This document shows, piece by piece, positions 24,506 through 24,634 of a stretch of 64,000 bases of DNA. Below the pieces are notes generated by a model. The model searched no databases. It was not told the origin of the DNA and saw only the letters and a program-made list of their open reading frames with translations. The stretch lies in the NCBI RefSeq assembly GCF_003018255.1, contig NZ_CP027440.1. One strand, 5' to 3'. Origin of the DNA: Escherichia coli (GTDB taxonomy: Bacteria > Pseudomonadota > Gammaproteobacteria > Enterobacterales > Enterobacteriaceae). The translations under genes and the position numbers were made by a program. Position 1 is the first letter of the stretch; each line of letters starts with the position of its first letter.

Positions 24506-24561
24506 CCAGGCTTTTGTAAAGACGAACAATAAATTTTTACCTTTTGCAGAAACTTTAGTTC

Positions 24562-24589
24562 GGAACTTCGCGCTATAAAACGAATCTGA
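24562..24589 (+). promoter_or_regulatory. Sigma-E (RpoE) promoter of degP: -35 GGAACTT (24562-24568), 16-nt spacer, -10 TCTGA (24585-24589)
   Basis: Exact match to the sigma-E consensus read from sequence, about 45 bp upstream of degP ATG; degP is a canonical sigma-E/Cpx regulon member. Confidence 0.7.
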
Positions 24590-24634
24590 AGAACACAGCA
24601 ATTTTGCGTTATCTGTTAATCGAGACTGAAATAC

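Follow-up and report, generated by a model that had tools for sequence, protein, structure and literature searches.

The known degP (htrA) control region of Escherichia coli as a phylogenetic footprint: a sigma-E promoter, a conserved upstream block presumed to bind phosphorylated CpxR, and a putative fourU leader hairpin

The gene degP has been a paradigm of dual envelope-stress control by sigma-E and Cpx since the 1990s, and its short upstream spacer raises a question that can be asked of the letters themselves: which of the bases in front of degP are truly constrained, and do the regulatory motifs that can be recognized there stand above chance? We addressed this in a 64-kb stretch of the E. 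coli chromosome (hereafter the window) that carries the gene order btuF-mtnN-dgt-degP-cdaR. The two genes that bound the region of interest are as follows:

22988-24505, plus strand: dgt (dGTPase) coding sequence, an open reading frame that agrees with the annotation
24635-26059, plus strand: degP (htrA) coding sequence, an open reading frame of 474 aa, to which identical E. coli records give the name serine endoprotease DegP

Between them lies an intergenic region of 129 bp (24506-24634). In a megablast search, the segment from 24380 to 24700 was present in 5,424 of 5,426 complete E. coli genomes, with at least 99% identity in 5,420 of them and 100% in many. The region is the already-known control region of E. 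coli degP, and nothing in it is biologically new. The initial annotation had treated a degP-type regulatory architecture at this place as a positive control for reading the window, and it is a valid one: locus, motifs, and coordinates all agree.

To recover the constrained bases, we collected the degP loci of 80 species of Enterobacteriaceae and aligned them over positions -330 to +12 relative to the start codon, with the third codon positions of neighboring dgt as a near-neutral reference. Against E. coli, these positions have a mean identity of 0.52 across the 80 species, with per-species values from 0.33 to 0.92. Invariance is confined to 28 of the 129 intergenic positions, which comprise TGTAAAG, CAATA, TTTAC, one T, and GAACT, and further an A at -17, an A at -6, the A at 24595, and the GA of the Shine-Dalgarno sequence. 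Judged at the level of sequence, these invariant positions spell out the regulatory anatomy of degP, and the following paragraphs take up its parts in turn, beginning with the promoter.

The initial annotation had placed a sigma-E promoter about 45 bp upstream of the degP ATG. Re-extraction returned its elements at exactly the positions given, with 45 nt separating TCTGA from the ATG at 24635:

24562-24568, plus strand: sigma-E -35 element GGAACTT, exact to the consensus of Rhodius 2006; -33 to -27 relative to the putative +1
24569-24584, plus strand: sigma-E spacer CGCGCTATAAAACGAA, 16 nt
24585-24589, plus strand: sigma-E -10 element TCTGA; -10 to -6

The exact pattern GGAACTT-N16-TCTGA has a single occurrence in the 64 kb of the window, and 100 shuffles that preserved dinucleotide frequencies yielded no match. 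Once two mismatches are tolerated, four matches face an expectation of 3.4; this relaxed form is uninformative and was dropped as a discriminator. Among the 80 species, the GAACT core of the -35 element is present in all, the full GGAACTT in 62 (the alternatives being GGAACTA and TGAACTT), TCTGA in 67 (the variants TCTTA and TCTCA differ at the fourth base only), and the 16-nt spacer length in 77. The promoter had also been described as an exact consensus match. This holds for the classical form GAACTT-N16-TCTGA, an older consensus that was presumably drawn largely from the degP and rpoH P3 promoters, but not for the -10 element of the current consensus, TCAAA, with which TCTGA shares three of its five bases, the initial TC and the closing A. 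The consensus obtained from 28 mapped E. coli promoters has GGAACTT as its -35 element and TCAAA as its -10 element, a spacer of 15 to 19 nt in which 16 nt is strongly preferred, and a discriminator of 5 or 6 nt (Rhodius 2006, PMC1312014). The degP promoter is like it in the exact -35 element and the 16-nt spacer and, for its putative start, in the 5-nt discriminator and the A at that start, and differs from it in having TCTGA rather than TCAAA. DegP belongs to the core sigma-E regulon (Rhodius 2006, PMC1312014), and overproduction of sigma-E induced degP more than any other gene, 56-fold (PMC2731931). The sigma-E reading of this promoter thus stands, carried by the unique match, the published architecture, the conservation, and the published induction by sigma-E.

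The start site can be placed by analogy. Salmonella htrA has a stress-induced start, htrAp3, with a 40-nt 5' untranslated region (PMC5602114), and the degP promoter, its ortholog, resembles htrAp3 both in its architecture of -35 element, 16-nt spacer, and -10 element and in its putative 40-nt leader. Counting 40 nt back from the E. coli start codon (24635 - 40) leads to an A that is invariant in 80 of 80 species and at which the Rfam model of the leader (see below) also begins. We therefore infer that this A is the E. coli degP +1:

24595, plus strand: putative transcription start, an A, giving a 40-nt leader

It follows a 5-nt discriminator, which fits the sigma-E rule. The initial annotation had expected transcription to begin about 7 nt past TCTGA, and the probable start, at about 6 to 7 nt, agrees with that expectation, as judged from the htrAp3 leader, the Rfam model start, and the invariant A.

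The leader that would begin at this A matches a known RNA element along its whole length:

24595-24640, plus strand: putative HtrA 5' UTR fourU RNA thermometer, Rfam RF02700
24622-24625, plus strand: Shine-Dalgarno core GAGA, at least 95% conserved with its GA invariant; 9 nt before the ATG

The match to RF02700 reaches 77 bits, where the gathering score is 52 (E = 9e-17; model positions 1 to 46 of 46), and the model begins at A24595. Other Rfam matches between 22000 and 28000 came nowhere near their gathering scores, and we set them aside as chance. In the predicted fold, UUUUG (24602-24606) pairs with CGAGA (24621-24625), which contains the Shine-Dalgarno sequence; this hairpin belongs to the predicted minimum-free-energy structure at 30 to 37 C and is lost at 42 C, where another structure replaces it. 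At -3.0 kcal/mol, the predicted hairpin of E. coli is very weak, and it is no stabler than shuffled sequence (z = +0.95). RNAalifold returned no consensus structure for 52 distinct leaders, and of 20 genera sampled, 9 have a leader that passes the Rfam threshold for RF02700. Because the RNAalifold result is null and the shuffle z score is unremarkable, the thermometer call rests on the Rfam match and not on thermodynamics. The Salmonella htrA leader confers temperature-dependent translation (PMC5602114). Set beside the Salmonella fourU thermometer (Klinkert 2012), the E. coli leader is alike in its hairpin between U tract and Shine-Dalgarno sequence, its one-base bulge, and its position in the leader; it differs at the base of the stem, where E. 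coli has CGAGAC and Salmonella has CGAGAU, so that the outermost pair is lost in E. coli. By this analogy, the E. coli degP leader is probably temperature responsive in the manner of its Salmonella counterpart. The RNA thermometer is missing from the initial annotation.

Upstream of the promoter, the alignment isolates a block of conserved sequence with several invariant parts:

24512-24545, no strand assigned: conserved upstream block, presumed CpxR-P operator; -83 to -50, mean identity 0.90
24515-24521: TGTAAAG sub-block, invariant in 80 species
24527-24531: CAATA sub-block, invariant in 80 species
24536-24540, minus strand: inverted GTAAA (TTTAC on the plus strand), invariant in 80 of 80 species

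The block is 34 bp long and lies 17 bp upstream of the -35 element. Its identity of 0.90 compares with 0.52 at the third-codon positions of dgt and with 0.27 and 0.60 in the spacer on its two sides. It holds the two pentamers singled out by the initial annotation, GTAAA at 24516-24520 and the inverted TTTAC at 24536-24540, whose coordinates are exact; the first of them stands 10 nt after the dgt stop codon and, like the second, is kept in 80 of 80 species. The layout can be written GTAAA-N5-(A/C/T)CAAT-N5-TTTAC: the two perfect pentamers are inverted relative to each other and 20 bp apart from center to center, with 15 bp between them and a total span of 25 bp that is the same in 80 of 80 species. 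GTAAA, the central pentamer, and TTTAC are about one helical turn apart, all on one face of the helix.

By sequence alone, the pentamers are not significant. The window contains 177 copies of GTAAA or TTTAC (2.8 per kb), and at least two fall together in 2.2% of all 86-bp segments; in the AT-rich dgt-degP spacer, about 0.47 would be expected from its composition. The arrangement GTAAA-N15-TTTAC is unique in the window where 0.06 is expected, a comparison for which the spacing was chosen post hoc. These frequencies are what one would cite for regarding the two pentamers as functionless chance occurrences in an AT-rich spacer. What places them above chance is not motif statistics but the conservation of both pentamers and of their spacing in 80 of 80 species, despite a synonymous-site identity of 52%, and by this the chance reading is effectively refuted.

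Which protein reads the block is the next matter. A published set of 41 known CpxR boxes includes two for degP, credited there to De Wulf 2002 (Zhao et al. 2022, PMC9600279, Table S1):

24516-24530, plus strand: published CpxR box degP1, GTAAAGACGAACAAT (PMC9600279, Table S1); its first pentamer is GTAAA at 24516-24520
24366-24380, plus strand: published CpxR box degP2, GTAAATTACCGTCAG (PMC9600279, Table S1), inside dgt

We scored the region with a CpxR position weight matrix built from the other 39 known sites, leaving the degP sites out to avoid circularity. On this matrix, the known CpxR sites have a median of 13.9 bits and range from 2.4 to 20.1 bits. The degP1 box reaches 6.35 bits (top 0.13% of window positions) and the degP2 box 12.2 bits, the best in the region (top 0.01% of window positions); the minus-strand 15-mer at 24526-24540, which contains the inverted pentamer, stays below 4 bits. 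The canonical direct repeat of GTAAA-like pentamers 10 bp apart was not found at degP1, whose second pentamer, ACAAT, matches GTAAA at two of five positions, and CpxR binding is not thereby precluded. Compared with the GTAAA-N5-GTAAA boxes of cpxP, ppiA, and yccA, the degP region is alike in having a perfect first GTAAA less than 100 bp from the start, in lying upstream of a Cpx-induced gene, and in having its box in the published set. It differs in that the direct-repeat partner of the first pentamer is ACAAT and in that its second perfect GTAAA is inverted and 15 bp away. In none of the accessible published CpxR boxes did we find the inverted TTTAC. Conservation reverses the ranking given by the matrix: the degP2 box is poorly kept, being retained only in Escherichia and the closest Citrobacter (mean identity 0.55), whereas the block with degP1 and TTTAC is invariant. 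The degP2 box lies outside the interval covered by the initial annotation and was missed there. A motif reported for Salmonella htrA from Gibbs sampling, GTAAATTACCCACGG, is the counterpart of this same nonconserved box within dgt and does not count as further experimental evidence.

Published expression data bear on the identity of the regulator from another side. Expression of degP rose 26.6-fold in a cpxA24 background and 32-fold upon overproduction of NlpE, with 6.4-fold remaining in the latter case when cpxR was absent, and deletion of cpxR lowered degP by a log2 value of -2.2 to -2.5. The induction that remains without cpxR is consistent with a second input, from sigma-E, and according to the literature degP expression depends on both sigma-E and Cpx. 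It is conceivable that the block is the operator of another regulator, such as the paralogue OmpR or an unknown factor, and that its likeness to CpxR sites is coincidental. The weak scores on the CpxR matrix would fit such a reading, as would a ChIP-exo study that called 12 direct CpxR targets in all with degP not among them. OmpR sites, moreover, presumably contain TTTAC-N-TTTTG, a pattern that is also present at 24536-24546. Against this stand the listing of degP1 as a CpxR site, the strong Cpx dependence of degP in three independent data sets, and a study from 1997 in which Pogliano and coworkers reportedly obtained a gel shift and DNase I protection with CpxR-P upstream of degP. We consider an operator for a different regulator highly improbable. 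The reading of the degP upstream region as a CpxR-P site is supported; the whole block, with TTTAC included, would be bound by CpxR-P. The initial description of both pentamers as CpxR-like accordingly divides in two: GTAAA, which opens the listed degP1 box in front of a Cpx-dependent gene, keeps its assignment, and TTTAC is assigned to CpxR by inference.

The downstream half of the block admits a second explanation, in which only GTAAA...CAAT would bind CpxR and the stretch AAATTTTTAC (-64 to -55) would be an A/T-rich element of the UP type with which the C-terminal domain of the polymerase alpha subunit makes contact. An A/T-rich UP region upstream of the -35 element is general in sigma-E promoters, with conserved A/T at -48/-49 and at -57/-58 (Rhodius 2006, PMC1312014). 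At degP, the positions -57/-58 fall within TTTAC, and the score below 4 bits of the minus-strand 15-mer is what this explanation would lead one to expect. An UP element should tolerate exchanges between A and T, however, and TTTAC is invariant in 80 of 80 species with its C included; its distance from GTAAA never varies; and positions -48/-49 are G and C in degP. The invariance of TTTAC together with the fixed distance suggests that individual bases are read here in concert with the first pentamer, and upstream of -50 degP has a base-specific conserved block in place of the generic A/T-rich UP region described for sigma-E promoters. An UP-like element is thus an unlikely account of TTTAC, and we retain the reading in which the block as a whole serves CpxR-P.

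A further alternative concerns the promoter through which CpxR-P acts. Besides htrAp3, Salmonella htrA has starts with leaders of 47 nt and of 215/449 nt (PMC5602114), and the three Salmonella starts would have E. coli equivalents at 24595, at 24588, and at about 24420. The second of these (about 24588) would lie downstream of TATAAA (24574-24579) and TAAAAC (24576-24581), both conserved within the sigma-E spacer, where TATAAA has a mean identity of 0.91 in the 80 species. The third would lie seven bases past TATTAT (24407-24412) inside dgt, in which two synonymous positions of Tyr codons are conserved at 0.88 to 0.95 against about 0.3 to 0.5 nearby. A consensus scan from 24300 to 24750 passed no sigma-70 promoter, so that the case for equivalents of htrAp1 and htrAp2 comes solely from Salmonella homology and conservation. 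Such equivalents near degP are possible, and we offer them as leads only. They are absent from the initial annotation.

If they are real, CpxR-P might act mainly through one or two sigma-70 promoters that overlap the sigma-E promoter or lie upstream of it (about 24588 and 24420), leaving the sigma-E promoter independent of CpxR. The conservation of the spacer TATAAA and of the TAT-TAT synonymous positions speaks for this, as does the position of the best CpxR matrix match: relative to a start at 24420, the degP2 box falls at -54 to -40. Danese and coworkers are also said to have found, in 1995, that the control exerted by Cpx requires EsigmaE only in part. On the other side, besides the negative scan, the hexamers in the E. 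coli sigma-E spacer end in A or C and not in the critical T, and the box at 24366-24380 is confined to Escherichia and near Citrobacter, in contrast to the invariant block beside the sigma-E promoter. When CpxR was overproduced alone, degP was not induced, a result that counts against the CpxR reading as such but that the authors of that study attribute to limiting sigma-E (Bury-Mone 2009, PMC2731931). We regard action mainly through sigma-70 promoters as doubtful.

The reading that we prefer is that degP is controlled by the sigma-E promoter, the upstream block for CpxR-P, and the fourU leader hairpin together, and we consider it very probable. In this scheme, sigma-E (RpoE) holoenzyme would recognize GGAACTT at -33 to -27 and TCTGA at -10 to -6 and initiate at A24595. 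The phosphorylated form of CpxR, the Cpx response regulator, would dock on the block from -83 to -50 and raise degP transcription from an upstream, class-I-like position, presumably through a contact with polymerase. The weak fourU hairpin of the leader would then occlude the ribosome-binding site at low temperature, so that sigma-E, CpxR, and the leader hairpin might provide three layers of stress control.

More tentatively, and with a probability that we would put below even, the true degP operator may be, instead of the 15-bp direct repeat of the textbooks, a strictly spaced inverted composite of 25 bp, GTAAA-N5-nCAAT-N5-TTTAC, that CpxR-P binds in a noncanonical manner, either head to head or as two dimers sharing the central pentamer.

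That a textbook regulatory region could be placed exactly from raw sequence lends some confidence to the other motif calls made in this window. The modest value added here is the phylogenetic footprint over 80 species, which indicates the bases that are truly constrained, namely, TGTAAAG, CAATA, TTTAC, GAACT, TCT-A, the A at +1, and the Shine-Dalgarno sequence. It also sets apart the two published CpxR boxes: the one inside dgt that the matrix prefers is not conserved, and the poorly scoring one on the promoter side is invariant. A composite operator, if true, would explain how degP combines a poor CpxR matrix score with one of the strongest Cpx responses, and it might underlie a cooperation between CpxR and the sigma-E holoenzyme.

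The dgt-degP region of the 64,000-nt window (NZ_CP027440.1) carries, in and around its sigma-E promoter (GGAACTT, 24562-24568; TCTGA, 24585-24589), several elements; conservation values refer to an alignment of the degP loci of 80 Enterobacteriaceae species around the start codon:

24366-24380, + strand: the published CpxR box degP2, GTAAATTACCGTCAG, inside dgt (12.2 bits with the CpxR matrix)
24407-24412, + strand: TATTAT, a candidate -10 element inside dgt, formed by two Tyr codons
24574-24581, + strand: TATAAA/TAAAAC, within the sigma-E spacer (0.91 conserved)
24595-24640, + strand: HtrA 5'UTR fourU RNA thermometer (Rfam RF02700; 77 bits versus a gathering score of 52)

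The first base of the RF02700 match coincides with the inferred sigma-E transcription start (A24595), and the thermometer was found in 9 of the 20 Enterobacteriaceae genera sampled. In E. coli it forms only a weak hairpin (-3.0 kcal/mol, z = +0.95), and the pairing of the SD sequence is gone at 42°C in the predicted MFE structure. The thermometer had not been mentioned in the initial annotation.

Two further elements can be aligned with Salmonella htrA starts. TATTAT may serve as the -10 of a candidate promoter within the dgt reading frame because the synonymous third positions of both Tyr codons are 0.88 to 0.95 conserved, versus only about 0.3 to 0.5 for third positions nearby, and because it ends 7 nt upstream of the equivalent of the htrAp1 start (~24420; 215-nt leader). 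The position of the spacer element agrees with the htrAp2 start (47-nt leader, ~24588), and many species have TAAAAT there; in the E. coli element the T that should close a sigma-70 -10 is missing, and hence a sigma-70-type promoter at this site may be weak or absent in E. coli.

With regard to CpxR, degP2 has the top matrix score of the region (top 0.01%), with conservation limited to Escherichia and close Citrobacter. The promoter-adjacent box (24516-24530) scores poorly, yet, unlike degP2, it is invariant in the 80 species. In Intestinirhabdus alba (L011), an ~80-bp insertion lies between the dgt stop codon and the conserved CpxR-type block, directly upstream of the latter, with block and promoter intact.

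Elsewhere in the window, a two-mismatch sigma-E-like pattern, CGAACTT-N16-TCTGG (39310-39337, + strand), inside the ORF 38675-39436, is followed 112 nt downstream by the next ORF; such two-mismatch matches occur at chance level (4 versus 3.4 expected in the window).

Many genera, among them Klebsiella, Kluyvera, Kosakonia, Atlantibacter, and Buttiauxella (loci L012, L021, L023, L027, L044, L052, L054, and others), have 4 to 7 more bases than Escherichia, Salmonella, Citrobacter, and Enterobacter directly 3' of TCTGA, between the -10 element and the leader; the additional bases frequently read TAGTCAC. Since deletions farther downstream in the leader offset these bases, the TCTGA-to-ATG distance is held at 41 to 50 nt (44 to 46 nt in 69 of the 80 species). 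In the genera with the extra bases, transcription starts probably differ.
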